Notes: a model not told the origin generated them from the sequence alone. A stretch of DNA of 64,000 nucleotides from Candidatus Multivoradales bacterium (GCA_965223155.1 CBDCVR010000013.1:288001-352000); one strand, 5' to 3'; numbered from the stretch's first letter, positions 8,129 to 24,756 are shown. Program-made: numbers and translations.

Positions 8129-8158
8129 TTGCCGGGGCGTTCGGTCCCTCGGTATACT
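8129..8158 (+). promoter_or_regulatory. Putative sigma70 promoter of ihfA-merR
   Basis: TTGCCG-18 bp-TATACT upstream of the ATG at 8198. Confidence 0.45.
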
Positions 8159-8197
8159 TCATGTAGATTCTCAGAGGTACTGCTTTAAGGGTACGCT

Positions 8198-8527
8198 ATG
8201 GCAGGAAACGACGATCCACTCAAGGACCGAAAACACGGAGTCACACGTGCCGATCTCACCGACGCCGTGTACGAGCGTCACGGCGGTCTCACCAAGACTG
8301 AGGCCGCCGAGGTCGTCAACAAGATCTTCGATACCATGAAGACGAACCTCCTCGAGGGCCGCCCGGTCAAGATCCAGAATTTCGGCGTTTTCGAGATCGC
8401 CGCCCGCAAGGGACGAGCAGGGGTCAACCCGGTCACCGGCCGCCGGATCTTCATTCCCGCCCACAAGAGCCTTCAGTTTCGGCCCGCTCCAAAGCTCAAG
8501 GACGCCGTCCAGGAGCCGGAAGAGTAG
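8198..8527 (+). CDS. ihfA: Integration host factor alpha / HU family
   Basis: VKIQNFGVF...GVNPVTG...FRPAPKLK; canonical ihfA-merR-tRNA-Pro order. Confidence 0.85.
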   Translation: MAGNDDPLKDRKHGVTRADLTDAVYERHGGLTKTEAAEVVNKIFDTMKTNLLEGRPVKIQNFGVFEIAARKGRAGVNPVTGRRIFIPAHKSLQFRPAPKLKDAVQEPEE

Positions 8528-8530
8528 TCC

Positions 8531-9154: not shown

Positions 9155-9204
9155 TATGGAACTTGTGGACATCCAGGCCCAGATACGTGCTAGCTTTCTT
9201 CACT

Positions 9205-9293
9205 GACCGATCCTCCGTTGTATGCGGCTCTGCCGCGGTTCTCCGTTTGAAAGACCCACGGTAACCCGCGGACCTACAACCGGTGGATCGGTC
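9205..9293 (+). ncRNA. Candidate structured ncRNA (long hairpin)
   Basis: GACCGATCC/GGATCGGTC, TTGTA/TACAA, CCGCGG-TT/AA-C-CCGCGG, CCGT/ACGG nested helices; TG-n-TAGCTT extended -10 at 9188-9196. Confidence 0.45.
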
Positions 9294-9479
9294 GTTCCAT
9301 ACTGTCTAGCCGGGCCGCTCTGGCCAGGCTCACCCGTCGAACGAACGGGTCCCCGTTGCGAGGGCCCTCGCCCTGCCGGGCCAGGTCGACCGGCTGATTC
9401 GAGCGAAGCGAACAGCACGCGCGGGAACGCCTTCCGGCTCGACAGGTCCCGGCGCCGTTGGGTAAAGTAGCCGACCGGT

Positions 9480-9556
9480 CGGGACGTGGCGCAGTCTGGT
9501 AGCGTACCTGAATGGGGTTCAGGGGGTCGCGAGTTCAAATCTCGCCGTCCCGACCA
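9480..9556 (+). tRNA. tRNA-Pro(GGG)
   Basis: CGGGACGTGGCGCAGTCTGGTAGCG...CCTGA-ATGGGGT-TCAGG...GTTCAAATC...CCA. Confidence 0.97.
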
Positions 9557-9949
9557 TAACTTCCCTGGCTTCAATAACTTGCAGTGGCCCTAGAATGGGC
9601 CAGATGCGGCCCTTCGATATGGGGCACTGGGTGGGGCACAAAGCGCCCAGTTTCCGCCCGGTTTACTAGGTATTATCGAGCCGATGGCCCGAGTAGTTCG
9701 AAGCGCAGCGGCTGGACGGGCCGAAGAGTCACGGTGCGCGTTGACCACCTGACCGTTGTTCGCGCTGCCACTCCGTCGTCTACCCGCAGCGGCATAGCAG
9801 CCAGACACGTGAGCCAAGAACCCGCAGATGACGAAACCCCACGAGAGGTAGGTGCCAGATGAGATGAGTCGGTCGGTCTCCAGCTGGGACACTGTGCCAG
9901 TTGGAGATAACCAAGGAATCGGCATCAGAGCCGAGAAAGGAGACCGACC

Positions 9950-10963
9950 ATGGAGTATGTTGGCATTGATGTTCACTCGAAGTACAGCGAGGTTTGCGGG
10001 ATATCGGAAGAGGGGGAAGTGACGCTTCGCCGGCGGATTCCGACTACGGAGACAGCCTTGCGCCGGTTCTTCGGTTGTCGTGAGCAGTCGCAGGTGACGC
10101 TCGAAAGCGGCCCGGTGACTCCTTGGGTGTACCGGTTGCTGTGTGAGCTGGGACACGAGGTGACGGTAGTCAACCCGCGGCGGGTGCGGCTGATCGCGGA
10201 GTCGACATTGAAGACCGACGGAATCGACGCCGAGGTGTTGGCTCGATTGAGCCGGTTGGATCTCGACCTCCTGCGTCCCGTGTACCAGCGTACGCGTGAG
10301 GCCCAGGAGCTTCGGGCCAGGCTTCGCGTACGTACGAGCCTGGTCAAAGCCAGGACATCGTTGATCAACGCGGTGCGTGGAACGTTGCGAGCTCAAGGGT
10401 ACCGAGTGCCATCGTGCCCGGCCAAGAGCTTCGTCGTGCGCTACGCATCGATGGGTCTCGACAGTTCTCTTGCGGAAACGATCGATCCTCTGGTGACGAC
10501 GATCGGCGAGTTGACGGATCGGATCAACCGGCTCGAGAAGGAGCTCGTAGCCGAGTCGAGCTCAAACGAGCTGTTGGTGCGGCTTCAGACGGTCCCTGGG
10601 GTGGGCCCCTTGGTGAGCTTGGCCTTCCTGGGTTGGATGGATCGCCCGGATCGGTTCAGAAAGAGTCGAGACGTGGGTGCGTGTTTGGGCTTGAGACCGT
10701 CGCTTCGAAGCTCAGGAGGACACGAGATCCGAGGCCGGATCACACGGGAGGGCGACGCCGAGATGCGAAGGCTTCTGGTTCAAGCGGCTCATGCGGCGTT
10801 GAACTGTCGCAAAGAGTCGTCGCTCAAGAACTGGGCTGAGAGCTTGGTCGAGAGGCTCGGCAAGGGCAAGGCCGTCGTGGCCCTAGCGAGGAAGATCGCA
10901 GTGTTGCTCCATCGGCTATGGGTAACGGGCGATACTTTCCGGGCGTTCCCCCAGGCGGTGTAG
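9950..10963 (+). CDS. IS110-family DEDD recombinase/transposase (A)
   Basis: GIDVH, LESG, KTDGIDA (RuvC-like DEDD), VPGVGP, SSGG, VALARK; RBS AAGGAG. Confidence 0.96.
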   Translation: MEYVGIDVHSKYSEVCGISEEGEVTLRRRIPTTETALRRFFGCREQSQVTLESGPVTPWVYRLLCELGHEVTVVNPRRVRLIAESTLKTDGIDAEVLARLSRLDLDLLRPVYQRTREAQELRARLRVRTSLVKARTSLINAVRGTLRAQGYRVPSCPAKSFVVRYASMGLDSSLAETIDPLVTTIGELTDRINRLEKELVAESSSNELLVRLQTVPGVGPLVSLAFLGWMDRPDRFRKSRDVGACLGLRPSLRSSGGHEIRGRITREGDAEMRRLLVQAAHAALNCRKESSLKNWAESLVERLGKGKAVVALARKIAVLLHRLWVTGDTFRAFPQAV

Positions 10964-10995
10964 AGCCTAGAGAACATCAGGTCGCACCAGAAAGG

Positions 10996-11148
10996 AAGGA
11001 CGGATTGAAAGTTTCGATGACTCCGAGAAAAGGGTTGGAGGCCAGGACTCCGCGTGCCAGATGGGAGCATCGAATCCTCAACGGACGAAAAACTCACCAT
11101 GCACCGGTCCAAGAAAGGACCCGCCAGAGTGCGAATAGAAGCTCGTCC
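10996..11148 (+). ncRNA. Predicted bridge RNA/seekRNA of IS variant A
   Basis: Two internal-loop hairpins; guides AAAGG(GT) 11029-35 and GTGCCAG 11054-60 match the flanks; ATAGAAG 11135-41 matches the IS end. Boundaries approximate. Confidence 0.8.
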
Positions 11149-11270
11149 TGAGGCTCCATCCGAGACCCGAAACACATGGGGAGACGATGACAGACACCTT
11201 GACCGAAACGACCGACTCATAGAAGCCTTTCCGCGAAAGCTAGTCAGTAGTTGACGTTTTCGAAAAGGGT

Positions 11271-11328
11271 GGTGCCTATTCTTGGGGGCACAGTGTCCCA
11301 GCTGGAGACCGACCGACCCATCTCATCT
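11271..11328 (-). mobile_element. Left-end remnant of a related IS1111-type element
   Basis: Reverse complement reads AG-ATGAGATGGGTCGGTCGGTCTCCAGCTGGGACACTGTGCC..CCAAGAATAGGCACC, near-identical to the left ends of A and B. Confidence 0.85.
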
Positions 11329-11352
11329 GGAACCTATCGATGGGAGGTCAGG

Positions 11353-11658
11353 TCAGGAGGAACCCATAATAGAGCTAAGTACCTCTAAGAGAAGGCACGA
11401 AAAGGCTGCCATCAGGAAGATAGACAGTGCGCAGTACAAGACCGACAGGACTGCTAACCAAGGGTCGCCCAACCGAAGTGGTCTGAAGCTGTACATGTAG
11501 CGCCAGAACCGGACGGTCTGCTGGGACGTCATAAAGTTTGAAGGCTTGCCCGCTCGTTGCCACTCATCTTCGTGATATTTCCGAAGTCGCCGCAACAAGG
11601 CCACCCCCACAAACATGGCTGGAAGCATCGCCGCGAAGAAGGCTATCTCAAGGCTCAT
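11353..11658 (-). CDS. Small hypothetical membrane protein
   Basis: 101 aa with two hydrophobic segments. Confidence 0.6.
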   Translation of the reverse strand: MSLEIAFFAAMLPAMFVGVALLRRLRKYHEDEWQRAGKPSNFMTSQQTVRFWRYMYSFRPLRLGDPWLAVLSVLYCALSIFLMAAFSCLLLEVLSSIMGSS

Positions 11659-11685
11659 AGAGGTGGCCCCCCTTGTTCGGACAGT

Positions 11686-13056
11686 GAGTTATCGTCAAAT
11701 GTTGTGTACGGGTGACTCAGGCGGCGATCCGGTTCTTGGGTTCTCCATCAACGAATTTGACACCTCGGACAACGTCGGCGATTCGCTTGTAGCCCTGTAG
11801 CCGCCGCCATCGTTTCTCGGCACTCTGGCTCAGCTTGAAGACCATCGAGAGCATGGTCTCGCGGGAGAGACAACCACGGGTCTTGGCCGTTCGAAGGCGT
11901 ACGGTGGCAAAGGTCGACTCGATCGGGTTCGTGGTCCTGAGATGGACCCAATGCTCGGCCGGGAAATCGTAGAAGGTCAGCAGGACCTTGCGATCCTTGG
12001 CCAGGCAACGCGTCGCCTTCGGGTACTTGGCCCCGTAGGTCGACAGGAAGGCATCGAAGGCTCGCTCGGCAGCCTCGCGCGTTTCGGCCATCCAGACCTG
12101 GTGCAGCGCCTGCTTGGCCTTTGGCTGGACGGCCTTGGGCATCTTGTTCAAGACGTTGCCGGTCTTGTGGACCCAGCAACGCTGGGTCTTGGTGTTGCTC
12201 CAGACCTGAGCCAGGGCCTTCCAGAAGCCCAGAGCGCCGTCACCGGTCGCCAGCTTCGGCTCGATGGCAAGCCCTCGCGCTTCGAGTCCACGCAAGAGCT
12301 CGAGCCAGGAAGCCTCGCTCTCGCGGTAGCCGTCTTCGACGGCGATGAGCTCCTTGGTGCCGTCCTCGGTGGCGCCAATCAGTACCAGCAGGCACAGCTT
12401 CGCGTCGTCCAGACGAGCCTTGGTATGGATCCCATCCGCCCACACGTAGACGTAGCGCTTGGAGGACAAGTCCCGGGTGCGCCAGTCGGTGTACTCCTTG
12501 GCCCAGACTTTCTTCAGACGGCTGATCGTCGCGGCTGACAACCCCGGGGCGTCGGGGCCTACCAGAGCTTCCAGGGCATCGGAGAAATCTCCGGTGGAGA
12601 TGCCGCGCAGATAGAGCCACGGCAGCAGCTCCTCGACGCTCTTGGCCCGTCTGAGATACGGAGGCGCGATCTTCGAGCGAAAGACCAACTCACCTTCACG
12701 ATCCCGAACCCGAGGCACCTTCACCGGCACACCTCCGATTCCCGTCTGGATCTCACGCTCGCGCAGGTAGCCGTTGCGAACCATGCGGCGCCGGCCATCT
12801 TCCGTTTGCTCGCCTCGGTACTCGGCCAGGAAGCTCTCGACCTCGGCTTCGATCGCTTCGCGAAGCAACTCGCGTGAGCCGCGGCGAAGCACTTCGGTCA
12901 AGGCATCTCTCGAACTCTCTGATCGGTCAATCGAAACTACGTTACTCTTGCTCAAGGCGTATCCTCCTTCTTTGAGGGTTTGAATCCGATTTGGAAAACC
13001 GGACTCAGGATACGCCGCCTTCATCTCAACTCATACACAACTTTCGACCATAGCTC
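11686..13056 (-). mobile_element. IS256-family element
   Basis: Imperfect 23-bp TIRs GAGTTATCGTCAAATGTTGTGTA / GAGCTATGGTCGAAAGTTGTGTA; 9-bp TSD TCGGACAGT at 11677-11685 and 13057-13065. Confidence 0.95.
11717..12955 (-). CDS. IS256-family transposase
   Basis: RNGY, VPRVRDR, WADGI, QRCWVHK, RTTNPIES; TTG start with AGGAGGA RBS. Confidence 0.95.
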   Translation of the reverse strand: MSKSNVVSIDRSESSRDALTEVLRRGSRELLREAIEAEVESFLAEYRGEQTEDGRRRMVRNGYLREREIQTGIGGVPVKVPRVRDREGELVFRSKIAPPYLRRAKSVEELLPWLYLRGISTGDFSDALEALVGPDAPGLSAATISRLKKVWAKEYTDWRTRDLSSKRYVYVWADGIHTKARLDDAKLCLLVLIGATEDGTKELIAVEDGYRESEASWLELLRGLEARGLAIEPKLATGDGALGFWKALAQVWSNTKTQRCWVHKTGNVLNKMPKAVQPKAKQALHQVWMAETREAAERAFDAFLSTYGAKYPKATRCLAKDRKVLLTFYDFPAEHWVHLRTTNPIESTFATVRLRTAKTRGCLSRETMLSMVFKLSQSAEKRWRRLQGYKRIADVVRGVKFVDGEPKNRIAA

Positions 13057-13087
13057 TCGGACAGTTCGGCGGCAGTGAATTCGGAGT

Positions 13088-13171
13088 GAATTCGGTGACA
13101 GGATACATATTTCGAGTGTCCCTCTGCGGCCGGATTCTTCCCTTGAAATTGGTATCCTGTCACCGAATTTC
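13088..13171. repeat. Palindromic repeat copy R1 (intact)
   Basis: Perfect 18-bp IR AATTCGGTGACAGGATAC (13089-13106 / 13152-13169) around a conserved spacer. Confidence 0.92.
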
Positions 13172-13179
13172 CCCCCAGC

Positions 13180-13524
13180 GTGGAATCCGATGGATTGCAC
13201 ACTCTCGTAGTGCCGTCGCGGGAGCGGAGCAGCGGTCAGCCTCAGGTCGACTTCTCAGTCGAGTATCCGCCCTGGGACGGGAGCCTTGACGACTCCAGAC
13301 TAGCGCCGCCCCCGGGCGTAAGCGGTGGCGGGATCTGGACGGTCCCTATATTCAAAGCGAACCGCCTGTGGGCTCCAGAACGCGCGGAGTTGGTCGGAGT
13401 GGCGAGGAGCTGGTCGCGGCAGAACAAGGAGCTCGTCTGCGTGCGTATAGAGGAGTGGCTCGCGATCCTTCGGCAAGACGTCGGCGATCTAGCGCCCGCT
13501 ATTGACGCGGCGGCTGGCCAGTAG
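13180..13524 (+). pseudogene. Probable 5'-truncated gene; trypsin-like protease C-terminal part
   Basis: PPGVSGGGIW...LVGVA resembles the GxSGG region; begins right after R1 with no N-terminal half. Confidence 0.4.
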
Positions 13525-13529
13525 CTATC

Positions 13530-14249
13530 TCAGTCCGCGCAGTTGTTGTACCGGAGCGTGTTCGCCTTCCACTCGTCGCGAGCGCTGCACCCGGCAACGT
13601 ACTCCTCAAGAAGGACGCGACACCGCGCTGGCGAGGGCGCGTGAAGGCCTGCCAACGTTGCGATCTCCCCGATCATCTCGTCCTGCGAATGGACCCAGTC
13701 AACTGCTAGAACGTCGGCTTTGGTCTCGACGTCAACGGCTGCTGGCAGGTCGGACCGGAGCGATGAATCGACAACCAAGAGAGCTCCGCGCGGGCGCTTT
13801 TGGCTGAGCTTGTAGGAGTTGATCAACGCACTGCCCATAACCGGGAAGATCGTCATCAGGCCTTCGCCCATCCTGATCACACCATCCGTCGACTTCGCCA
13901 TGACCGAATCGGGGTAGCAGCCCTGTACATCCGCGAAGCCACCCGTCGACAGAGCTGCTCTCGCAACGCCTCCACCGGCGAGAACGTGCCGAAGTACGCC
14001 GATCGCAACGGCGACGGGTTTCCCCAGCGCCTGTTCGCCAAAGCTCGGAACGACTACGAAGCCATCGCCAAGCTGGTGGGCAAACAGGCGATGCGGCTCC
14101 TCCGCGAGGCACATCGCGCCAATGCGGTGAATCGCCTCCATTAGTCGACCAAGGCGCACTAGAGCCTCAGCCTGGTGCATGGCGTACGTATCAGAGAACC
14201 CCTCGAGATCGAGATAGAGGGACCACTTGTCTTCGCCAGTCCGCCACAT
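13530..14249 (-). CDS. Hypothetical protein, class III nucleotidyl-cyclase-like
   Basis: YLDLEGFS, LGDGF, RAALSTG, GSALINSYKL; start set at ATG 14249 because the longer ORF runs into the IS. Confidence 0.6.
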   Translation of the reverse strand: MWRTGEDKWSLYLDLEGFSDTYAMHQAEALVRLGRLMEAIHRIGAMCLAEEPHRLFAHQLGDGFVVVPSFGEQALGKPVAVAIGVLRHVLAGGGVARAALSTGGFADVQGCYPDSVMAKSTDGVIRMGEGLMTIFPVMGSALINSYKLSQKRPRGALLVVDSSLRSDLPAAVDVETKADVLAVDWVHSQDEMIGEIATLAGLHAPSPARCRVLLEEYVAGCSARDEWKANTLRYNNCAD

Positions 14250-14373
14250 TGAGGTCAACGGTTGCTGTGGAATTCGGTGACAGATGAGATGAGTCGGTCG
14301 GTCTCCAGCTGGGACACTGTGCCAGTTGGAGATAACCAAGAATCGGCATCAGAGCCGAGAAAGGAGACCGACC

Positions 14374-15387
14374 ATGGAGTATCTTGGCATCGATGTTCAC
14401 TCGAAGTACAGCGAGGTGTGTGGCGTATCAGAAGACGGTGAGGTGACGGTTCGCCGGCGGGTTCCGACGACCGAGACGGGCCTGCGAAGGTTCTTCGCCA
14501 ATCGGGAACGCTCGCAGGTGACGCTCGAGAGCGGTCCGGTCACACCCTGGGTCTATCGACTGCTGTCTGAGCTCGGCCATGAGGTGATGGTGGTCAATCC
14601 ACGCCGGGTACGTCTGATCGCGGAATCGACCCTGAAGACGGACGGAATCGACGCCGAGATCCTGGCTCGTTTGAGCCGGTTGGATCTGGGTTTGCTTCGA
14701 CCAGTCTACCAGCGCACAGGTGAGGCCCAAGAGCTTCGGACGCGTCTTCGGGTCCGAACGAGTCTGGTGAAGACCAGGACCTCGCTGATCAACTCCGTAC
14801 GCGGAACGCTGCGGGCACAGGGCTACCGAGTGCCCTCATGTCCGGCGAAGAGCTTCGTGGCTCGGTACGCGTCGATGTCGGTCGAAGCCGGCCTGTTGGG
14901 AGCGCTCGAACCTCTGGTAACGACAATCGGCGAGCTGACCGATCGGATCCACCATCTCGAAGACGACCTCATCTCCGAGTCGAGATCAAACGAGCTGGTC
15001 CGTCGGCTGCAGACGGTTCCTGGTGTGGGGCCTCTGGTGAGCCTTGCGTTCGTCGGCTGGATGGATCGTCCGGATCGGTTCGAGAAAAGCCGCGACGTCG
15101 GAGCGTGTCTGGGCTTGAGACCGTCGCTTCGCAGCTCAGGAGGGCATGAGGTCAGGGGCCGGATCACTCGCGAGGGCGACTCGGAGATGCGCAGACTCTT
15201 GGTGCAGGCAGCTCATGCGGCGTTGAACTGTCGCAAAGAGTCGTCACTCAAGAGATGGGCTGAGGGCCTGGTCGAGAGGCTGGGTAAGGGCAAGGCCGTG
15301 GTCGCGCTAGCTAGGAAGATCGCGGTGTTGCTCCACAGGCTGTGGGTGACAGGTGAGAGCTTCCGAGCCTTTCCCAAGGCAGCGTAG
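14374..15387 (+). CDS. IS110-family recombinase/transposase (B)
   Basis: Same motifs as A; 337 aa, closely similar to A. Confidence 0.96.
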   Translation: MEYLGIDVHSKYSEVCGVSEDGEVTVRRRVPTTETGLRRFFANRERSQVTLESGPVTPWVYRLLSELGHEVMVVNPRRVRLIAESTLKTDGIDAEILARLSRLDLGLLRPVYQRTGEAQELRTRLRVRTSLVKTRTSLINSVRGTLRAQGYRVPSCPAKSFVARYASMSVEAGLLGALEPLVTTIGELTDRIHHLEDDLISESRSNELVRRLQTVPGVGPLVSLAFVGWMDRPDRFEKSRDVGACLGLRPSLRSSGGHEVRGRITREGDSEMRRLLVQAAHAALNCRKESSLKRWAEGLVERLGKGKAVVALARKIAVLLHRLWVTGESFRAFPKAA

Positions 15388-15413
15388 AAGAGATAACTAG
15401 ACGACCAACAAGC

Positions 15414-15566
15414 AAGGACGGATTGAGAGGTTCGATGACTCCGAAAGTATCCTTGGTGGCCCCGACACCGTGTGACAGATGGGAGCATCGATTCCTAAAC
15501 GGACGCAAAACTCACCATGCACCGGTTCAAAGAAGAACCCTACAGAGTGCGAATAGAAGCTCGTCC
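15414..15566 (+). ncRNA. Predicted bridge RNA/seekRNA of variant B copy 1
   Basis: Guides GTATCCT (15447-53) and GTGACAG (15472-78) match the target; ATAGAAG (15553-59) and CTCA (15511-14) match the donor junction. Confidence 0.83.
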
Positions 15567-15645
15567 CAAGCCTCGATCCAAACCTAAGGAAAACTACAAA
15601 AAGAAGAAACGAAACTCTTGACGCCAACCGACCGACTCATAGAAG

Positions 15646-15747
15646 GATACATATTTCCTGACGGTTCCGGTGACAGGATACATATTTCGAGGGTCCCTCT
15701 GCGGCCGGATTCTTCCCTTGAAATAGGTATCCTGTCACCGGATTTCC
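15646..15747. repeat. Palindromic repeat copy R2, preceded by the remainder of an IS-interrupted extra arm
   Basis: CCGGTGACAGGATACATATTTCGAG...CTTGAAATAGGTATCCTGTCACCGG; the other half of the extra arm is at 14270-14283. Confidence 0.9.
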
Positions 15748-15771
15748 AGTGGAATTCCGGCTCGGCTCGCG

Positions 15772-17064
15772 TCACCTGATACCGGGGATTCGTACCGCGG
15801 GGATGATCTCGTCGAGCAGGATCTGCTCCGGCATCCAGAAAAAGTCCGGGTCGTTGTACCCGCCGCACAGGATCACGACGAGGAGGTCGAGTGCGGGAAT
15901 GACGTAGATGCGCTGGCCACCATTCCCGGCGGCGGTATGGACCTCCAGCTCGGCGGAGTCCGTGCCGTAAAGATCGTGCCACCAGAGGTATCCGTAGCCG
16001 AATTCGCCGATCTCTTTCTCGCGTCCGGTCACGGCAAGACGCCGCCGCGTCGATTCGCTCACCCAGGATTCGGTCAGGATCTGCTCGCCGTTCCAGCGCC
16101 CGCCGCTGAGATACAGCGAGCCGAACTTTGCGAAGTCTCGCGCTGTCATCCAGACGTTTCCGCCGGGGTCCGAGTTTGTCGCCCAGGGCCGATCGCTCTC
16201 CCACGCGAGCTCGGGCACGGAGTCCCAGTTCGAATAGCTGGCCCATTCGACGTCTCGTATTCCCAGCGGTTCAAAGAGCAGTTCTCGGGCGTAGGCGCCG
16301 AAGGCCTTGTTCGTAGCACGTGCCACCGCGATACCCAGCATCGCGGGCAACCCGGAGTTGTAGTACCACTGCGTACCGGGAGTCGAGGCCATCGAGCGGC
16401 TGAACACGTAGGCTGCCGGGTCGTCGTGCGCAGTCGTTCGCTCTGCGTCGTTCGAAGGGTCGGTGTACGGCACCTCGAACTCGTTCCAGCGGAGCCCGGC
16501 ACTCATCATCAACGCGTGGCGGACGGTGATTGCACGTTTCTCCGGCGTAGCCAGCGAATCTAGTTCCGGGAAGTAGTCGAGCAGCGGGGTGTCGAGCGAC
16601 GGGATCGCTTGGCGATCGAGCGCGATTCCAACGACTGCCGAAGTGATGCTCTTCCCCACGGAGCGCGAGTCGTGCAGCGTGGTCCGGTCGAACTCGACGG
16701 TCACGGTCTCAAAACGCTCTCCATTCCAGCGCTTGTCTTCTCCCGTGAAATACGATTCGTACACGAGTTGGCCGCTCTTGGCGATCAGCACCGCATGGAC
16801 GTTCGGGTACCGCTCGCCCTGGCGCAGCGCTGCGGTCATGGAGTCGAGGCGTGAAACGTCGAGTCCCGCGTCGGACGCGGCACCAACGCCCCATCCATCG
16901 TCGGTCCTGGCAGGCGTCCAGGCGGCCTCGGGCGACGCCGCGGTCGGAGTGGGTGCCGAATTCTCGGTCGTTCCACAGCCCTGGGATGCCAGCAGACAGA
17001 GTGCAACCGCAGTTACCGTCCAGTGTCGGGGTGTCACCGTCGCAAGACGTCTTGCAGCTCTCAT
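15772..17064 (-). CDS. Serine hydrolase, beta-lactamase class C-like family; lipoprotein
   Basis: SVGK (SxxK), YYNS, AAGNGGQ; lipobox SQGC. Resistance function not established. Confidence 0.88.
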   Translation of the reverse strand: MRAARRLATVTPRHWTVTAVALCLLASQGCGTTENSAPTPTAASPEAAWTPARTDDGWGVGAASDAGLDVSRLDSMTAALRQGERYPNVHAVLIAKSGQLVYESYFTGEDKRWNGERFETVTVEFDRTTLHDSRSVGKSITSAVVGIALDRQAIPSLDTPLLDYFPELDSLATPEKRAITVRHALMMSAGLRWNEFEVPYTDPSNDAERTTAHDDPAAYVFSRSMASTPGTQWYYNSGLPAMLGIAVARATNKAFGAYARELLFEPLGIRDVEWASYSNWDSVPELAWESDRPWATNSDPGGNVWMTARDFAKFGSLYLSGGRWNGEQILTESWVSESTRRRLAVTGREKEIGEFGYGYLWWHDLYGTDSAELEVHTAAGNGGQRIYVIPALDLLVVILCGGYNDPDFFWMPEQILLDEIIPAVRIPGIR

Positions 17065-17180
17065 GGTGCCGGTACTCTAGTCCCAGGAGCCAGTATTCCC
17101 AAGGAGAATCTGCGTGTCCTTGACCCTCGGAAGTCGACCATCTGAGAGTCAAACCTCGGACGCGGCGATCTCTTGGCGAC

Positions 17181-17363
17181 AGAACAACGGAGAATGTCCT
17201 GGTCTTCGACTTCGACGGCGGCACGAATCTGGAGAACGCCGACCACTACTTCGGCGCAGCCAAGCTCACTCTGGACGGCGACCACCTCACCAGCGCCTGG
17301 ACCGCCTATGCGGGCAGCGAGAAAGCCGCCGGTATGACCTTTCACCTGGCGCGATCCGAGTAG
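17181..17363 (+). pseudogene. 3' fragment of a hypothetical gene
   Basis: Protein-like frame ENVLVFDFDGGTNLENADHYFG...FHLARSE-stop; no start after the in-frame stop at 17121. Confidence 0.45.
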
Positions 17364-17393
17364 TCCAGGTCGCCAACTCTTCAAGAGAGCAGC

Positions 17394-17429
17394 TAGTCAG
17401 GACGGCGAGATTCGAACTCGCGACCCCCT
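17394..17429 (-). repeat. att-like copy of the tRNA-Pro 3' end, inverted
   Basis: 33/36 identity to 9521-9556 on the opposite strand. Confidence 0.88.
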
Positions 17430-17474
17430 ATGCCCGAAGCCGGAGACCGCTAAAACACCCTTCTCCAGCAGCTC

Positions 17475-18221
17475 CTAGTTGTACAACAGGTAGACCAGTG
17501 CCTGGCCGAGCGGAATCGTCGGCAACACGAGAGCTGCCACCAAGATGAAGATCATCAAGAGTGGTGCGCCCCATCGCACTACCCCGTGCACTCGTCCCAG
17601 CGTCCACCGATCGTAGAACATGACTATTCCCAGGAGTAAAGCCAGTCCACCGAGGCCATAGGCGGCCTCACTGAGCATCGGCGAAGGGCTGATTTGTAGC
17701 GACGGGGACCGACCGATACGCGCAAGCGCCTGGCCCATCATCGCAAGAGATGCGAGCATCATGAGCCTCATGTGAGCCTCACGATTGCGACGGTGCCAAA
17801 CGCCCAACGCGACAAAAGACGCGAAAGCGATTACGAGTATCAGGTTGCCCCACAAGAACTGGCTCGCCCGCTCGACGCTGCCACCGGATTCGCGAAACTC
17901 AAGAACACCGCGGTAGAGAATCGAGAGTCCTGAGAGGACCATCAAGCCGGCGAGAACGGCCCCCAGCCCGCCGAGGCGGCGGTGGAACCGACGTTGGCCC
18001 GCTTGAACTAGAACGCTCTGGACGATAAGCAGAACGAACCACGAGGTGAAGAGGACGCCGTGGAGCTTCGTTCGTAGCGGCAACTCAGGGCTGTTGAACG
18101 CGCCGCGCAGAAAGTACGTGGGCGCAAAGCCGATGATGTTGAGGGCTAGGAGCAGAACGGCGAACCAGAGGACGAACCGCTGAGCGGCCCCGTTGGGCAA
18201 ACTTCCCTGGGTGCTTGGCAT
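17475..18221 (-). CDS. Hypothetical multi-pass membrane protein
   Basis: GFAPTYF, HGVLFTSW, HRRLG, HMRLM; about 7 hydrophobic segments; GGAGGAG RBS. Confidence 0.8.
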   Translation of the reverse strand: MPSTQGSLPNGAAQRFVLWFAVLLLALNIIGFAPTYFLRGAFNSPELPLRTKLHGVLFTSWFVLLIVQSVLVQAGQRRFHRRLGGLGAVLAGLMVLSGLSILYRGVLEFRESGGSVERASQFLWGNLILVIAFASFVALGVWHRRNREAHMRLMMLASLAMMGQALARIGRSPSLQISPSPMLSEAAYGLGGLALLLGIVMFYDRWTLGRVHGVVRWGAPLLMIFILVAALVLPTIPLGQALVYLLYN

Positions 18222-18295
18222 GACTCCTCCTGGTTTTGTCCGCCGGCCATCGTATCCCAGCGCACCCCCAGCCCCCTCCGAGATTCCTACCCTGG

Positions 18296-18389
18296 GTGAA
18301 TTCGGTGACAGGATACGTGAATTCGGTGACAGGATACATATTTCGAGTGTCCCCCTGCGGCCGGATTCTTCCCTTGAAATAGGTATCCT
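18296..18389. repeat. Palindromic repeat copy R3 with tandem left arm; right arm interrupted by IS and completed at 19751-19765
   Basis: GTGAATTCGGTGACAGGATAC x2, spacer, GAAATAGGTATC-CT-[IS]-GTCACCGGATTTC. Confidence 0.9.
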
Positions 18390-18467
18390 TCTATGAGTCG
18401 GTCGGTTGGCGTCAAGAGTTTCGTTTCTTCTTTTTGTAGTTTTCCTTAGGTTTTGGATCGAGGCTTG

Positions 18468-18620
18468 GGACGAGCTTCTATTCGCACTCTGTAGGGTTCT
18501 TCTTTGAACCGGTGCATGGTGAGTTTTGCGTCCGTTTAGGAATCGATGCTCCCATCTGTCACACGGTGTCGGGGCCACCAAGGATACTTTCGGAGTCATC
18601 GAACCTCTCAATCCGTCCTT
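18468..18620 (-). ncRNA. Predicted bridge RNA/seekRNA of variant B copy 2
   Basis: Reverse complement of 15414-15566. Confidence 0.83.
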
Positions 18621-18646
18621 GCTTGTTGGTCGTCTAGTTATCTCTT

Positions 18647-19660
18647 CTACGCTGCCTTGGGAAAGGCTCGGAAGCTCTCACCTGTCACCCACAGCCTGTG
18701 GAGCAACACCGCGATCTTCCTAGCTAGCGCGACCACGGCCTTGCCCTTACCCAGCCTCTCGACCAGGCCCTCAGCCCATCTCTTGAGTGACGACTCTTTG
18801 CGACAGTTCAACGCCGCATGAGCTGCCTGCACCAAGAGTCTGCGCATCTCCGAGTCGCCCTCGCGAGTGATCCGGCCCCTGACCTCATGCCCTCCTGAGC
18901 TGCGAAGCGACGGTCTCAAGCCCAGACACGCTCCGACGTCGCGGCTTTTCTCGAACCGATCCGGACGATCCATCCAGCCGACGAACGCAAGGCTCACCAG
19001 AGGCCCCACACCAGGAACCGTCTGCAGCCGACGGACCAGCTCGTTTGATCTCGACTCGGAGATGAGGTCGTCTTCGAGATGGTGGATCCGATCGGTCAGC
19101 TCGCCGATTGTCGTTACCAGAGGTTCGAGCGCTCCCAACAGGCCGGCTTCGACCGACATCGACGCGTACCGAGCCACGAAGCTCTTCGCCGGACATGAGG
19201 GCACTCGGTAGCCCTGTGCCCGCAGCGTTCCGCGTACGGAGTTGATCAGCGAGGTCCTGGTCTTCACCAGACTCGTTCGGACCCGAAGACGCGTCCGAAG
19301 CTCTTGGGCCTCACCTGTGCGCTGGTAGACTGGTCGAAGCAAACCCAGATCCAACCGGCTCAAACGAGCCAGGATCTCGGCGTCGATTCCGTCCGTCTTC
19401 AGGGTCGATTCCGCGATCAGACGTACCCGGCGTGGATTGACCACCATCACCTCATGGCCGAGCTCAGACAGCAGTCGATAGACCCAGGGTGTGACCGGAC
19501 CGCTCTCGAGCGTCACCTGCGAGCGTTCCCGATTGGCGAAGAACCTTCGCAGGCCCGTCTCGGTCGTCGGAACCCGCCGGCGAACCGTCACCTCACCGTC
19601 TTCTGATACGCCACACACCTCGCTGTACTTCGAGTGAACATCGATGCCAAGATACTCCAT
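18647..19660 (-). CDS. IS110-family recombinase/transposase (B)
   Basis: Translation identical to 14374-15387. Confidence 0.96.
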   Translation of the reverse strand: MEYLGIDVHSKYSEVCGVSEDGEVTVRRRVPTTETGLRRFFANRERSQVTLESGPVTPWVYRLLSELGHEVMVVNPRRVRLIAESTLKTDGIDAEILARLSRLDLGLLRPVYQRTGEAQELRTRLRVRTSLVKTRTSLINSVRGTLRAQGYRVPSCPAKSFVARYASMSVEAGLLGALEPLVTTIGELTDRIHHLEDDLISESRSNELVRRLQTVPGVGPLVSLAFVGWMDRPDRFEKSRDVGACLGLRPSLRSSGGHEVRGRITREGDSEMRRLLVQAAHAALNCRKESSLKRWAEGLVERLGKGKAVVALARKIAVLLHRLWVTGESFRAFPKAA

Positions 19661-19763
19661 GGTCGGTCTCCTTTCTCGGCTCTGATGCCGATTCTTGGTT
19701 ATCTCCAACTGGCACAGTGTCCCAGCTGGAGACCGACCGACTCATCTCATCTGTCACCGGATT

Positions 19764-20576
19764 TCACGGCGGGCCTGAGTGACCCGCATCCGCGAGGTCG
19801 CGGGCCAGCAGCCGACGGACCTCGCCGGGCAGCCGGCCCTGGCCCAGGTCGTGGCAGAGCTCATGGGTCATCTCCAGGCTGCTGAAGAGAGCCTGGCACC
19901 GGATGCAAAGCTCCGAGTCGGGAACCGGGAAGGCCACGCCCCGATCGAGCGCTTCTTGCTTGCCGCGCAAGAGATCCAGGCAGACCGCGCGCGGATGGTC
20001 CGGCGGCGGAGCCGGTTGCCGGGGCAGCAGGGGATCCAGGACCTCGCGGAGTTGGAGCCGGGCGCGCCGCACCCGGGTCTTGAGCGTGGCTTCCTTGAGG
20101 CCCAGCACCTCCGCCACCTCATGGACGGACAGCTCGGCGATGTCCTTGAGGACCAAGGGCAGGCGGTATTCGAGGGGCAACTCGGTAAGCGCGCCGCTGA
20201 GCCGTTCTTCGGCTTCGTGGGCGATCGTGGCCCGGAGCGGATCGTCTCGTGCCAGAGCCGCGGCGACGTCGTCGCCGGACGGCAGCAGCTCTTCCAGCGA
20301 ACGAACGTGCGCCGGCTCGCCGGAGCGCCGGCGGTGCCGGCGGCGGCAGGCTCGAACCGCGATGGTGTAGAGCCAGCTCGTGGGCGCCGAGCGGCCCTGG
20401 AACTGGTCCCATTTCCGGTAGGCGTTCAGAAACGTCTCCTGGAGGAGATCGTACGCCTCGTCCTCGCTGCCGCAGACTCGGAGACCTAATCGGTAGAGCT
20501 TGGCTCCGTAGCGATCCAGAAGCAGCGGGATGGCGTGATCTGCGTCCAGTCCGACCAGCTCGTCGTGTGCCGCCAC
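19764..20576 (-). CDS. ECF sigma factor with C-terminal extension
   Basis: AYDLLQETFL, SWLYTIA, EVAEVLGLKEATLKTRVRRAR; Cys-containing tail. Confidence 0.9.
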   Translation of the reverse strand: MAAHDELVGLDADHAIPLLLDRYGAKLYRLGLRVCGSEDEAYDLLQETFLNAYRKWDQFQGRSAPTSWLYTIAVRACRRRHRRRSGEPAHVRSLEELLPSGDDVAAALARDDPLRATIAHEAEERLSGALTELPLEYRLPLVLKDIAELSVHEVAEVLGLKEATLKTRVRRARLQLREVLDPLLPRQPAPPPDHPRAVCLDLLRGKQEALDRGVAFPVPDSELCIRCQALFSSLEMTHELCHDLGQGRLPGEVRRLLARDLADAGHSGPP

Positions 20577-20691
20577 CTGGCTAGTGTAGTGGGCTGCCGG
20601 GAGCGGGACAAGAAGATCGGCCCGTCGCGGCGGCTTTGGCCGATCCGCACCGTTGCGCTAGCGTCGAGAGGATGCCGGAGAATGGGACCTG

Positions 20692-21675
20692 ATGCCGAAG
20701 AAGCTCGCCGCCGTGGTGCTTGGCGTGGCTCTGGCCCTGGGCCTGGCCGAAGCCGGGTTGCGGGCCGCGGCCGGGCTGGGAGAGGCCGAGGCGGCACCCG
20801 TGTACCGGCCGATCGCGTCGGCGGATCCGGAGGTCTGGTCCGGCCGAACCTACAAGGTGCCCCGAGTGCGAATCCTGGTGGTCGGGGATTCCTTTACCTT
20901 CGGTTGGGGGGTCGGGGAGGAGGATGCCTATCCCAGCCGGCTGGTGCATGCCTTCAACAGCCGCCAGCGCGGGGTCGAGGTACTCTCTGTCAGCCGTCCC
21001 GGTTGGAACGCGCATGCCGAGCTCCAGGAGCTGCCCGCCCTCCTGGACGAGACGCTGCCGGACGTCTTGGTGGTAGGCCACTGCCTGAACGACGCCGAGT
21101 ACTATCCGACCGGCCGGATGTTGGAGGATCGGCCCGAGCTTCGGCCGTGGCGGCCGTCGGGTCTCGAGGCGCGGCTGGCGGCGGCGAGCGTCCTCTACCG
21201 GCGGCTGCGGTTGGCGAGCGACGGTCTGCGCTTGACGCCCCGTCTGCGCGGCTACTACCTGGGTCTGTATGAGGACGCCAAGGGAACCCGCCGCTGGCGG
21301 CGCTCGCTCCGGCTGATGGCGCGCCACGCCCGGGAGCGCGGCATCGCGCCGGTGCTCGCGTCGTTTCCGATCTTCGATTCCGATCTGGACTCGGACTACG
21401 CCTATCGCGGCCTTCACGACATCGTGGTCGATGAAGGGGAGGCCGCCGGGTTCCACGTTCTGGATCTCCTTGCCGCGTACGAGGGCCGGCCGGGCCGGTC
21501 GCTGGCGGTGACTCCCTTCACCGACCCCCATCCGAGCCGGATCGCCCATGCCGTCGCCGCCGAGACCTTGGCCGAGTTTCTGGTGGAGAAGGGGCTCCTG
21601 GCACCGGCGCCGCACTCGCCCTGGTTCGGGGTCGACGAGGCGGGCCAGGCTCCGGAACCGGCCGCAGTCCGTTGA
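20692..21675 (+). CDS. SGNH/GDSL hydrolase
   Basis: GDSFTFG, LND, DPHPS. Confidence 0.85.
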   Translation: MPKKLAAVVLGVALALGLAEAGLRAAAGLGEAEAAPVYRPIASADPEVWSGRTYKVPRVRILVVGDSFTFGWGVGEEDAYPSRLVHAFNSRQRGVEVLSVSRPGWNAHAELQELPALLDETLPDVLVVGHCLNDAEYYPTGRMLEDRPELRPWRPSGLEARLAAASVLYRRLRLASDGLRLTPRLRGYYLGLYEDAKGTRRWRRSLRLMARHARERGIAPVLASFPIFDSDLDSDYAYRGLHDIVVDEGEAAGFHVLDLLAAYEGRPGRSLAVTPFTDPHPSRIAHAVAAETLAEFLVEKGLLAPAPHSPWFGVDEAGQAPEPAAVR

Positions 21676-21811
21676 CCCCCCTGGGGGGCGCTCGTATACT
21701 GCCGTCTCTTTCACGCGTCGGCCCCGCACCGAGCTCGGCGAAACGTCTCGCGGTCTCGATGGGCGGGCGGCCGGCGCGCGAGCGTTCCTTGAGAGACGAC
21801 GGCACGGACTG

Positions 21812-22285
21812 ATGAGCCCCAGACGCAAAGGCCGTGAGTTGGCCATTCAGGCCCTGTACCAGTGCGACCTGGGGAAGGCCGACGTCGAGGAGGCGCTCGC
21901 TTCCTTCCGTCCGGCGGAGTACGGCTCCGACGACGGCGAGGCAGTCGAGACCGAGGACGGCCGGCAGAGCAAGGGCACGAAGCGAGCCTTCGAGTATGCC
22001 CAGCGGCTGGCGCGGGGGGCGACCGAACACAGGGATTCGATCGACGCCTTGATCCGGGAGCAGGCCGAGCACTGGCGCCTGGAGCGCATGCCGGCGGTGG
22101 ATCGGAACATCCTGCGCCTGGCGGTCTACGAGTTTCTGCACGAGCCGGACGTTCCCAAGCTCGTCGTCGTGGATGAGGCCATCGAGCTGGCCAAGAAGTT
22201 CGGGTCGGATGACTCCGGCCGGTTCGTCAACGGCTTGCTGGACGGCCTCCTCAAGAAGCGCGCGTTTCCGGGAGTGATGAGCTGA
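21812..22285 (+). CDS. nusB: Transcription antitermination factor NusB
   Basis: [38 protein letters not shown]. Confidence 0.95.
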
Positions 22286-24756
22286 TGCACTACGACCACA
22301 AGACCGTCGAGGCGAAATGGCAGAAGCGCTGGCAGAAGCGCCGCGTCGCCGAGATCGACCTGTCGGACCCGAAGAACAAGTTCTACATGCTGATGATGTT
22401 CCCGTATCCGTCGGGAGATCGGCTGCACGTGGGGCACGGCCGGAACTACATTCTGGGAGACGCGCTGTACCGGTTTCTGCGCATGCGCGGGAAGCGGCCC
22501 TTGAACCCGATGGGCTGGGACTCGTTCGGCCTGCCGGCCGAGAACGCGGCGATCGCCCGCCAGGTGCATCCCCGGGACTGGACCCTCGGCAACATCGAGG
22601 TGATGACCGAGCAGTTCAAGAAGTGGGGCATCCTCTACGACTGGTCGAAGGAGGTCACCTCCTGCCAGCCCGACTACTACCGCTGGAACCAGTGGCTGTT
22701 CCTGCGCATGCTGGAGAAGGGCCTCGCCTACAAGAAGAAGGCGCCCGTCAACTGGTGCCCGAGCTGCCAGACCGTGCTGGCCAACGAGCAGGTCGCGGAC
22801 GGCCGTTGCGACCGATGCCGGTCCGAGGTCGTCCAGAAGGACCTGGAGCAGTGGTTCTGGAAGATCACGGACTACGCCGAGCGGCTGCTGGCCGGCCTGA
22901 ACGAGCTGGAGGGCTGGCCGGAGCGGGTCAAGGTCATGCAGCGCAACTGGATCGGCCGCTCCGAGGGCGCCGAGCTGGATTTCGAGATTCCGGCGATCGG
23001 GGAGACCTTGACGGTCTTCACCACCCGGCCGGACACCGTCCATGGCGCCACGTTCATGGTCCTGGCCCCGGAGCATCCCTGGGTGGAGCGCTTGCTCGAG
23101 GGCAATCCCGAGGCCGCCGAGGTCTCCGCCTGGATCGAGAAGATCCGCAACACGCCCCGCATCGAGCGCGAGGGCGAGGGGGTGGAGAAGGAGGGCCGGG
23201 ACACGGGTGCCGTCGCCGTCAACCCGGCCACGGGCGAGGAGATCCCGATCTGGATCGCCAACTACGTGCTGCCGGACTATGGCACCGGCTCGATCATGGC
23301 GGTGCCGGCGCACGACGCCCGGGACCTGGCCTTCGCCCGTCAGGAAGACCTGGCGGTGCGCCTGGTCTACGTCCCCGAGGGCGCCGACGTGGCCGAGCTC
23401 GAGGCGACGATCCAGGAGCCGATTCTGCACGACGGCACGATGCGGAACGCTGGGCCCTTCGACGGCCGCGCGGCCGAGTCCGGCGTCATTCCGGACTTCA
23501 TCGCCTGGACCGAGGAGCAGGGCTTCGGCCGAGCCCGGGTCACCTACCGGCTGCGGGACTGGCTCATCTCACGCCAGCGCTACTGGGGAACGCCGATTCC
23601 GGTCGTGTACTGCGAGGGCTGCGGCATCGTCCCGGTGCCCGAAGACGAGCTGCCGGTTACCTTGCCTTACGACGTCGAGTTCACCGGCAAGCGCGGCAAT
23701 CCCCTGGCACGGTCCGACGAGTTTCTGCGCGCGAGCTGTCCCGAGTGCGGCGGCGAGGCCCGGCGCGAGACCGACACCATGGACACCTTCGTGGATAGCT
23801 CCTGGTACTACTTGCGGTATCTGTCGGCCAAGGACGACAGCCAGATCTTCAACGTCGAGACCGCCAAGGAATGGATGCCGGTCGATCAGTACATCGGCGG
23901 CATCGAGCACGCGATCCTGCATCTGCTCTACGCGCGCTTCGTCTGCCGGGTGCTCTTTGATTTCGGTCTGGCGCCGGTCGAGGAGCCGTTCCGGAACCTC
24001 TTCAATCAGGGGATGATCACGCGCTACGCCGAGGCCAGCGGCCGGATCGAGAAGATGTCGAAGTCGCGTGGCAACACGGTATCGCCCGATGAGCTGATCG
24101 AGGAGATGGGAGCCGACACCGAGCGGGTCTACACGCTCTTTCTGGGTCCGCCCGAAGACGAGGTCGAGTGGAACGACGAGGCGGTCTCGGGCGCCTATCG
24201 ATTCCTGAATCGGACCTGGCGCCTCCAGGAGCGGCTGGCCGAGGTGCCGCCCAACGGCCTCGACGATGCATCACTCGAGCGCGCGGTCCATCAGACCATC
24301 GAACGGGTCACCCGCGATCTCGAGAAGTTCAAGTTCAACACCGCGATCGCGGCTCTGATGGAGCTCATCAATGCCCTGTCCAAAGCGATCGAGACGAGTT
24401 CGGCTTCCAAGCGAGTCTGCGACGAGGCCTACGACGTCCTGATCCGGCTGCTGCATCCGATGGCGCCGCACCTGACCGAGGAGCTCTGGGAGCTGCGCGG
24501 GCATCCCGACTCCCTGCTCGAAACCGACTGGCCGAGCTTCGACGCCGCCAAGCTTGAAACCCAGTCGGTGACCCTGGTGATCCAGATCGACGGCAAGCTG
24601 CGCGACCGGATTACGGTGGCCGCCGACGCCGGCGGTGACGAGATCCGGGAGCTGGTCTTGGCGAACGAGACCGTACAGCGGTACCTGGAGGGAAGGGATC
24701 CCGCCAAATTCATCCACGTTCCCGGTAGACTGGTGAACCTGGTAACGCCCCGTTGA
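22285..24756 (+). CDS. leuS: Leucyl-tRNA synthetase
   Basis: [27 protein letters not shown]. Confidence 0.98.

Follow-up and report, generated by a model that had tools for sequence, protein, structure and literature searches.

Palindromic units built like miniature TIRtrons, and an IS1111-type element inserted at their core, in the genome of a Candidatus Multivoradales bacterium

Results

Palindromic units and insertion sequences in the window

The window analysed here, a 64,000-nt stretch of contig C13 from a Candidatus Multivoradales bacterium (GCA_965223155.1), carries between its tRNA-Pro and LeuRS genes a family of palindromic units of approximately 84 bp and two copies of an insertion sequence (IS), here called IS-B, that occupy arms of this repeat. 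The source assembly (G000) comprises 4.0 Mb in 15 contigs, and a window position equals the C13 coordinate minus 288000. A preliminary description of the window had proposed three co-oriented palindromes (R1, R2 and R3) with a conserved asymmetric spacer; reading of the sequence and a repeat search recover all three, and the spacer agrees with the consensus given there. The repeat search places the copies at 13093-13172, 15668-15747 (96% identical) and 18324-18403, the last of which is only 83% identical because its alignment runs into the IS. The arms of R1, R2 and R3 are 28 nt long, inverted and 89-93% complementary (89% in R1, where 13089-13116 faces 13142-13169), with 21-25 nt between them, and the co-oriented units follow one another at spacings of 2575 and 2656 nt. 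For R1 and R2 as single-stranded DNA (ssDNA), the computed folding energy is -23 to -28 kcal/mol (z about -8), a value that none of 200 shuffles equals. The main features, with core sites and terminal inverted repeats (TIRs) as defined in the following sections, are:

13086..13172 (unstranded): R1, intact unit of the 84-bp type, an inverted TIR-core dimer with both core sites empty
14269..14283 (+): left half (…GAATTCGGTGACAG) of an extra left-arm copy, forming the left flank of IS-B copy 1
14284..15645 (+): IS-B copy 1, a 1362-bp IS1111-type element of the IS110 family by sequence identity and domain matches, with the transposase open reading frame (ORF) at 14374-15387 and a non-coding region at 15388-15645
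15434..15489 (+): putative target-binding loop of a seekRNA or bridge RNA, predicted from the alignment of four elements and their fold
15664..15747 (unstranded): R2, likewise an intact 84-bp unit, neither of its core sites being occupied
18296..18316 (+): tandem extra 21-nt copy of the left end of R3 (GTGAATTCGGTGACAGGATAC), with an empty core site inside
18317..18387 (unstranded): left arm, spacer and inner right arm of R3, from sequence reading and the repeat search
18388..19750 (-): IS-B copy 2, which splits the right arm of R3 and differs from copy 1 by a 1-nt indel (99.93% identity)
19751..19765 (unstranded): outer right arm of R3 (CTGTCACCGGATTTC), overlapping the stop codon of the extracytoplasmic function (ECF) sigma ORF

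The right half of the extra left-arm copy (GATACATATTTCC, 15646-15658) directly follows IS-B copy 1, which thus lies in an additional left arm 22 nt upstream of R2. All six empty copies of the 12-mer GTGACAGGATAC that the preliminary description had listed (13095, 13152, 15670, 15727, 18305 and 18326) are found at those positions, as are its two sites occupied by IS-B. The arrangement relative to genes also holds: about 25 nt separate R2 from the stop codon of the ORF at 15772-17064(-), R3 runs with its right arm into the stop codon of the ORF at 19764-20576(-), and every called ORF between 13530 and 21846 is encoded on the minus strand, where the accessory genes had been placed. The statement that R1 abuts a truncated gene finds no confirmation, the ORF at 13180-13524 having no match in Pfam or NCBIfam; in the other direction, 30 nt separate R1 from an IS256-like element (11686-13056).

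Using BLAST with the unit as query, we find seven 84-bp-type units in the assembly, namely the three in the window, C15:971261-971333, C14:361108-361178 and one each on the small contigs C2 and C7. IS-B is present in one arm of five of the seven, and R1-R3 and the C15 copy are 96-97% identical. The small contigs C7 and C11 share 94-99.8% identity with the main contigs and are probably co-assembled strain variants. This 84-bp subfamily is seen only in the G000 assembly, with a partial match in the related genome G007, and the 25-nt spacer pattern has no match in either a genome-contig or a metagenome-contig collection. A miniature inverted-repeat transposable element (MITE) derived from a DDE transposon was considered as a candidate and rejected, as the seven units have no direct repeat at their ends and the IS256-like and IS110-type elements end differently. 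An Rfam search (E<=1) over 8000-22000 returned only tRNA-Pro and two chance matches under the gathering score.

IS-B is inserted at a short core

The assembly contains 15 copies of IS-B, of which 14 are full-length and at least 99.9% identical, and the remaining one, on C7, is interrupted by an IS256-like element inserted inside it. The transposase has the domains PF01548 and PF02371 (DEDD transposase) and scores 241 bits against the model NF033542, 'IS110 family RNA-guided transposase' (cut-off 140). The element has subterminal inverted repeats of 13-14 nt (GAGTCGGTCGGT...) and non-coding DNA of 90 nt upstream and 258 nt downstream of tnp. We regard IS-B as an active IS1111-type element of the IS110 family. 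Transposases at least 85% identical to that of IS-B occur only in G000 and in two genomes of the same genus, G002 and G004.

The insertion site is nearly constant, with GGTGACAG on the left in 15 of 15 copies and GATAC on the right in 14, the other having GATGC. The preliminary description had seen the 84-bp unit as the landing pad of the IS. Six of the 15 copies do lie in the 84-bp family or in the half-site beside R2; the pad is, however, the 12-14-nt core and not the unit, since nine copies are at other core sites. Two occupied sites, on C7 and C11, correspond to the empty sites C14:366086 and C14:574430, and a comparison of these two empty/occupied allele pairs reveals no target-site duplication at IS-B, with 1 nt (one G) ambiguous.

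A side observation concerns R3. The Logan contigs of four sequencing runs are short and break off at the repeats. One of them, from run X3, joins an uninterrupted right arm of the repeat to the end of the ECF sigma gene (window 15747/19767), with 22 letters between. The joint has a depth of 3.6 and a shorter side of 53 letters, its left side fits R2 and R3 equally, and it may represent an IS-free R3 in a variant strain.

Guide-like segments covary with the target among relatives of IS-B

The region downstream of the IS-B transposase gene has a conserved stem around an internal loop with an inner hairpin. The loop contains, on its 5' side, GTATCC (15447-15452), a complement of the right half-target G|GATAC as read on the top strand, and, on its 3' side, GTGACAG (15472-15478), identical to the left half-target; further downstream, ATAGAAG (15553-15559) repeats the right end of IS-B. 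Three relatives, with transposases 85-87% identical to that of IS-B at the protein level, allow the segments and targets to be compared (guide segments given as 5' side / 3' side, ^ marking the insertion point):

IS-B: GTATCC / GTGACAG; flanks GGTGACAG^GATAC
G004_C181: GTAACC / GTGACAG; flanks GGTGACAG^GCTAC
IS-A: AAAGGG / GTGCCAG; flanks GGTGCCAG^CCTTTCC
G002_C32: AAGTGGG / GTGCCAG; flanks GGTGCCAG^(C)CCACTT

IS-A lies in the window itself (9859..11225, plus strand; target GGTGCCAG^CCTTTCC) and is 82% identical to IS-B in DNA and 86% in protein. In the consensus fold of the four elements, the 11 outer pairs are invariant and one of the five inner pairs is changed on both sides, and almost all sequence variation falls within the two unpaired segments. 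These follow each other in the order published for IS1111 seekRNAs, with the complement of the top strand first (PMC11187229). The comparative evidence that IS-B would be programmed for the core by these putative guide segments is good, and the earlier proposal of an RNA-guided IS exploiting the repeat gains from both the constant target GGTGACAG^GATAC and the guide-like segments that covary with the target in relatives. The four related elements would constitute a clean natural example of RNA-guided retargeting, including retargeting between variants of one repeat family.

A second copy of IS-A is found at C15:372322, and 60 nt downstream of IS-A in the window, at 11287-11330, a fragment of the left end of a similar IS stands by itself in inverted orientation.

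Core sites across the genome and the family

The core is not confined to the 84-bp type. The whole assembly contains 17 empty 12-mers (0.24 expected) and 15 occupied core sites, and those outside the 84-bp type comprise doublets with other spacers (C14:561682/561738, C15:702795/702884) as well as singlets. The neighbours of core sites elsewhere in G000 include LepA, the NAD-dependent DNA ligase LigA, the O6-methylguanine methyltransferase Ogt, transporters, hydrolases and mobile or defence-like genes. A text search of the literature with both strands of the 12-mer returned only unrelated eukaryotic papers.

We surveyed the 12-mer in 41 genomes, made up of G000, 24 others from the same family and 16 from other families of the order (the same-family tallies take in an unpublished genome, G005). 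It is present in 16 of the 24 same-family genomes and in two of the 16 from other families, whereas the reversed 12-mer, used as a control, occurs in none of the 41. The number of copies ranges from 0 to 69 within the one family, with 69 in G010, 18 in G014, 16 in G022 and nine in G007. The G010 copies are mostly inverted pairs 33 or 54 nt apart whose spacers vary by locus. An IS-B-like transposase is absent from G010, G014, G022 and G007 at E<=1e-20; because these genomes are nonetheless rich in cores, we conclude that the repeat predates IS-B and does not depend on it.

We also observe frequent tandem duplication of the 8-18 nt that adjoin the core on its left or extend into its left half. 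This left-flank duplication is found in 11 of 34 rows in G000 (IS-A sites account for two of these rows, and allelic duplicates for two of the 11 positives), compared with 142 of 5000 random places, and in 11 of 53 sites among chosen loci of G010, G014, G022, G007 and G004. The duplicated units include, for example, a 15-nt unit present twice and, in G010, a 14-nt unit present five times. A different IS target, at G002_C32, has a similar left-flank duplication, with AAAAGGTGCCAG present twice. Examples are:

Window: 13075-13096 (R1) and 18296-18337 (R3)
Elsewhere in G000: C14:361173, C14:303512, C15:702884 and C15:715743
Relatives: L015 (G010); L019 and L020 (G014)

In related genomes the core flanks a Y1 transposase gene

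The preliminary description had suggested a search for a linked gene encoding a REP-associated tyrosine transposase (RAYT; REP, repetitive extragenic palindrome) or another HUH transposase, and related genomes do carry a RAYT-like Y1 transposase gene bordered by inverted core copies or near variants of them. In G014, the gene detected by the PF01797 search lies between two inverted exact 12-mers, and in four other genomes the flanks of its ortholog are one- to three-base variants of the 12-mer:

G015: GTGACAGGAAAC, one side
G004: GTGACAGGCTAC, one side
G032: GTGACAGTTTAC, both sides
G012: GGGACAGGTTAC, one side

The variant dispersed in a genome is the one that flanks its own transposase gene: it makes up 36 of the 37 pattern matches of G032 and 13 of the 19 of G004.

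Relatives of the Y1 protein occur at 55 loci in public species genomes, whose metagenome-assembled genome (MAG) labels name Acidobacteriota, Thermoanaerobaculia, Planctomycetota, various Proteobacteria and others. We examined 44 of these loci, excluding 11 with truncated matches (L114, L125, L129-L137), for an inverted repeat of at least 13 nt shared by the 200 nt that precede the gene and the 250 nt that follow it; as a control, the downstream window was moved 600 nt further. Such a repeat is present in 32 of the 44 named-MAG loci, compared with 0 of 42 in the shifted control, and 27 of the 32 contain G[GT]GACA; at L084 the exact 12-mer is found at the transposase locus.

The Y1 protein has a Y1_Tnp domain and a C-terminal extension of about 95 residues. 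It matches the NCBIfam model REP_Tyr_transpos at E 5e-19 over profile positions 3-146 of 146, and its only sequence match in the PDB is E. coli TnpArep, 4ER8 (E 7e-5). The arms of the 84-bp units are, judging from these sequence relationships, the TIRs of a RAYT-like Y1/HUH transposase of the TIRYT/TIRtron kind. The arms of the unit are arranged as in a TIRtron, their GGTGACAG ends pointing outward, and a short spacer replaces the gene; because of this geometry we interpret the unit as a miniature of the MITE-like kind, similar to the REP doublets forming hairpins (REPINs). The preliminary description of an unclassified REPIN/MITE-like element thus stands as regards REPIN/MITE-like and falls as regards unclassified, the arms being of a published kind.

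Only remnants of the transposase are found in G000

A PF01797 search of G000 detects a sole intact Y1 gene, at C14:32014-32367. We considered it as the transposase of the repeat and rejected it, as it is IS200-like and no copies of the repeat flank it. Two remnants are detected by tblastn with ten RAYT-like proteins as queries:

C14:366127-366258: N-terminal remnant of about 44 residues, beginning about 35 nt after the core at 366086 and ending in a stop
C14:1236909-1237019: C-terminal remnant of about 36 residues, directly after an IS-B copy and core, and followed by an inverted variant core

The core site of the N-terminal remnant (C14:366086) is occupied by IS-B on the variant contig C7. 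Because the transposase survives only as these two remnants in a genome with a completeness estimate of 98.7%, the roughly 32 core sites of G000 probably represent an orphan population that is no longer multiplying, and G000 would document a repeat outliving its transposase. Less easily reconciled with this are the 96-97% identity of 84-bp units and the fact that the dimer-rich G010 and G022 are likewise without a detectable ortholog.

A possible host role for the palindromes

The best placed of the alternatives, which we nevertheless consider improbable, holds that the palindromes are kept mainly for a role in the host, such as termination, mRNA stabilisation or protein binding, and that the transposase link is secondary. 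The strength of the hairpins is in keeping with such a role, as is the position of the units in G010, G022 and G000, from a few to about 25 nt past stop codons and often between convergent genes; the 12-mer is moreover conserved across genera while the adjacent bases vary. However, a host role leaves unexplained both the inverted pair at the transposase genes and the match between dispersed and flanking variants, and a copy number that differs as widely within one family as it does here is what mobile DNA would lead one to expect. A host role would also be compatible with a mobile origin.

The stretch between tRNA-Pro and LeuRS as a possible cassette array

From tRNA-Pro (9480-9556) to just before LeuRS (22285-24756), the G+C fraction is 0.56-0.64, compared with 0.64-0.71 around it. 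Mobile DNA in this stretch comprises IS-A, a solo IS end, the IS256-like element, the two copies of IS-B and an inverted tRNA-Pro-like fragment, and the genes are an unknown ORF, a PF00144 serine hydrolase, an ORF without a family match, and the ECF sigma gene with an unknown neighbour. The ORFs at 13530-14339, 17475-18224 and 20581-21846 have no Pfam or NCBIfam match. The IS256-like element is a further row of the feature list:

11686-13056 (-): IS256-like element (Transposase_mut, PF00872), with further copies on C14, C15, C11 and C7

We compared this stretch with that of four same-genus genomes (G001, G002, G003 and G004). tRNA-Pro and LeuRS lie on a single contig in G001 (interval of 6.3 kb) and G002 (15.5 kb), with contents that differ from those in G000; in G003 and G004 they are on different contigs, and partial stretches were compared. 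The stretches compared in the four genomes contain none of these genes by tblastn and no core site with up to one mismatch, and the genes between the window repeats have no DNA match in the four whole genomes. The genes are therefore accessory, being not found in same-genus genomes, and no link of their gain or loss to the repeat ends emerges: synteny with G001-G004 gave no repeat-bounded breakpoints. No second context was found for a gene-plus-repeat unit, and the beta-lactamase-family gene has no relative in the genome-contig collection.

The preliminary description had taken the repeats to partition these genes like cassettes and had suggested a search for a tyrosine recombinase. In the general form of this idea, the repeats are recombination sites, attC-like or other, that bound mobile gene cassettes and are acted on by a recombinase or by Y1 at the outer arms. 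The three window copies are indeed co-oriented and each lies 3' of a minus-strand gene, with intervening genes not found in the four same-genus genomes (DNA search of the whole genomes, tblastn of the tRNA-Pro and LeuRS regions); a polysaccharide gene cluster of G032 has a dimer in each of five consecutive intergenic gaps, at distances of 1.1-1.8 kb, a pair of G004 dimers is separated by 1.2 kb, and the outer arms of two dimers share the geometry of the TIRs around a transposase gene. However, the window contains no PF00589 gene, the seven matches in the genome all lying elsewhere, and the attC end motifs (RYYYAAC/GTTRRRY), whose absence had already been claimed, are indeed absent from the units on reading their sequence. 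The genes between the G032 dimers are on both strands, core sites in G000 also lie beside the housekeeping and other genes LepA, LigA and Ogt and beside transporter genes, the spacer pattern is absent from both contig collections, no gene-plus-repeat unit was seen in a second context, and the G001-G004 stretches compared contain neither these genes nor a core site with up to one mismatch. In the absence of a window recombinase and of repeat-bounded gain or loss in these comparisons, we find the role of cassette boundaries unsupported and regard it as very unlikely.

A variant of the same idea, to which we give just as little credence, is that the genes between two TIR dimers are cargo-carrying TIRtrons, excised and reinserted as ssDNA by a TIRYT in trans. 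Were it true, it would amount to a cassette system run by an HUH transposase instead of an integrase; the dimer-per-gap arrays of G000 and G032, the location in a variable region and the duplications left of the core would then belong together, the duplications being traces of repeated cleavage and joining at the core.

Least probable of all is that the core sites were made or spread not by Y1 but by an IS1111-type element, as footprints, carried flanks or recombinase products, for although IS-B sits in five of the seven 84-bp units and 22 nt from a sixth (R2), both transposase remnants are at IS-B target sites, and the left-flank tandem duplication recurs at the other IS target, G002_C32, the core-rich G010, G014, G022 and G007 are without an IS-B-like transposase, the core flanks Y1 transposase genes across phyla, and the empty and occupied alleles show that insertion adds nothing.

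Some further observations touch this stretch and the repeats. The G032 cluster (L146, G032:C1:664000-676000) has its five dimers of the G032 variant among genes of the types Acyl_transf_3, GT4, and GT2 with a methyltransferase. At about 17400-17440 on the minus strand lies an inverted 36-nt copy of the 3' part of tRNA-Pro, 34 of 36 nt identical, and the segment between the two inverted IS-B copies, with this fragment, could have been flipped by them. Contig C4, which has a PF00589 integrase and repeats 47 nt of the tRNA end, appears to represent a variant tRNA-Pro locus. At C15:950000-978000, several segments of 1-4 kb are repeated at 85-97% identity around two copies of IS-B and one 84-bp unit, and these segments recur on contigs C2 and C9.

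Discussion

A probable interaction of two kinds of mobile DNA

The interpretation that we favour, with a probability of roughly 0.8, is that two known kinds of mobile DNA interact here, REPIN-like TIR dimers and an IS1111-type IS that homes to the TIR core. In this interpretation each 84-bp unit consists of two inverted copies of the TIR of approximately 28 nt (core CGGTGACAGGATAC) that flanks a Y1/HUH gene in related bacteria, and by analogy with the REP/RAYT and IS200/IS605 systems the units would fold as ssDNA hairpins and be copied in trans by the Y1 transposase. The RNA expected downstream of the IS-B transposase gene, going by work on IS1111 elements, would pair with the top strand at GGATAC and the bottom strand at GTGACAG, and this pairing would direct the DEDD transposase to insert the circular IS in between GACAG and GATAC without duplication. 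The copies in the window mark intergenic gaps 3' of minus-strand genes in a variable, IS-rich stretch beside tRNA-Pro.

Several observations weigh against this interpretation, the first group of which concerns the transposase. The Y1 protein scores 68.6 bits against REP_Tyr_transpos, below the equivalog cut-off of 80, and no helix-turn-helix (HTH) is found in its C-terminal extension, Pfam reporting only Y1_Tnp even at E<=1, whereas PMC6006769 gives subclass 2.1 transposases C-terminal HTH-like extensions. The transposase also fails to parallel the repeat from genome to genome, an ortholog being found in just seven of the 24 family genomes, and in neither G010 (69 copies; 89% complete, about 290 contigs) nor G022 (16 copies; 99% complete, 5 contigs); conversely G015 has the gene, yet its core occurs only as the two flanking copies. 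R1-R3 and the C15 copy are 96-97% identical without an intact transposase, which requires a recent loss, an import with an island or some other route of copying. As for the core, that of G000 has T where the TIRtron motif GGGGWSAS has G (GGTGACAG), and the GTAG tag of REPs (PMC3733652) contrasts with GTAT in G000, although the G004 variant has GTAG. On the side of the IS, the guides of IS-A and of the G004 element mismatch their own flanks at one to three positions each, and the fold of the seekRNA region is no better than that of shuffles (z -0.7), so the case for the guide rests on covariation. Finally, the terminal extensions of IS-B past its subterminal repeats are 5/5 or 7/7 nt, depending on the repeat boundaries drawn, compared with the 7 left and 3 right described as usual for IS1111 elements (PMC11187229).

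If this interpretation is right, an IS1111-type element homes to TIRYT-type ends in a poorly studied lineage, which we judge to be acidobacterial from the titles of the closest loci. A repeat found across a bacterial family would be tied to a transposase clade that the literature (2013, 2018) has described from few genomes, and the many further TIRtron loci with a common core would be useful for defining transposase recognition.

Comparison with published systems

Di Nocera et al. (2013; PMC3733652) describe RAYT-like genes, named 'TIRYT', that are flanked by long TIRs rather than GTAG REPs, the whole being called a 'TIRtron'; the TIRs share the motif GGGGWSAS, TIR families occur as singles, dimers and clusters, and an acidobacterial TIRYT group is sharply defined. 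In Quentin et al. (2018; PMC6006769), TIRYT is TnpA_Y1 subclass 2.1, with the motif GGGG[AT][CG]A[CG]. The system described here shares with these elements a RAYT-like Y1 gene with flanking inverted repeats of roughly 20 nt and copies that occur as singles, dimers and clusters. As to the TIR motif, the core agrees with it at 7 of 8 positions in G000 (GGTGACAG) and at 7 or 8 of 8 in relatives (GGGGACAG or GGTGACAG). The acidobacterial group of the paper has its counterpart in the Acidobacteriota and Thermoanaerobaculia MAGs that are the closest named loci here. The present system differs in that G000 has transposase remnants only and departs from the motif at one base, and in that Pfam detects no C-terminal HTH.

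The likeness to REPIN-RAYT systems (Bertels and Rainey 2011, PMC3116915; E. coli TnpArep, 4ER8) lies in two inverted repeats with a spacer that form a long hairpin in intergenic DNA, in a Y1/HUH transposase gene flanked by the same repeats, and in a protein that matches the REP-associated model and TnpArep. In contrast to REPINs, spacers vary by locus and are not copied as one unit, except in the 84-bp subfamily, and the NCBIfam score below the cut-off sets the protein apart from the REP-RAYT pair. The claim that the units lack the REP GTAG motif is correct for G000, where the reverse complement of the core begins GTAT. With integron attC sites the units share imperfect palindromes with a variable centre, a position 3' of co-oriented genes and targeting by an IS1111 element; they differ in having no integrase gene in the window, no RYYYAAC/GTTRRRY ends, copies beside housekeeping genes and a link to a Y1 transposase.

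IS-B, for its part, resembles IS1111 elements with repeats as targets. According to Siddiquee et al. (2024; PMC11187229), IS1111 elements have subterminal inverted repeats and encode the seekRNA in a long non-coding region that follows tnp; ISPa11 targets REPs, and ISKpn4 and ISPst6 target attC. Homing to REPs is described for ISPa11 of Pseudomonas aeruginosa and ISPpu9 of P. putida (PMC11187229, PMC12288879). Like these elements, IS-B has a DEDD transposase, subterminal repeats, a long non-coding region after tnp, a target within a palindromic repeat that is not duplicated on insertion, and two segments that match this target in the published order, with natural retargeting between close relatives. 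The difference is that its target is the TIR of a TIRYT-type element, not a GTAG REP or attC. Both partners are thus of described kinds, and no new kind of system is revealed; what adds interest is the retargeting series, a repeat surviving its transposase and the tandem duplication left of the core.

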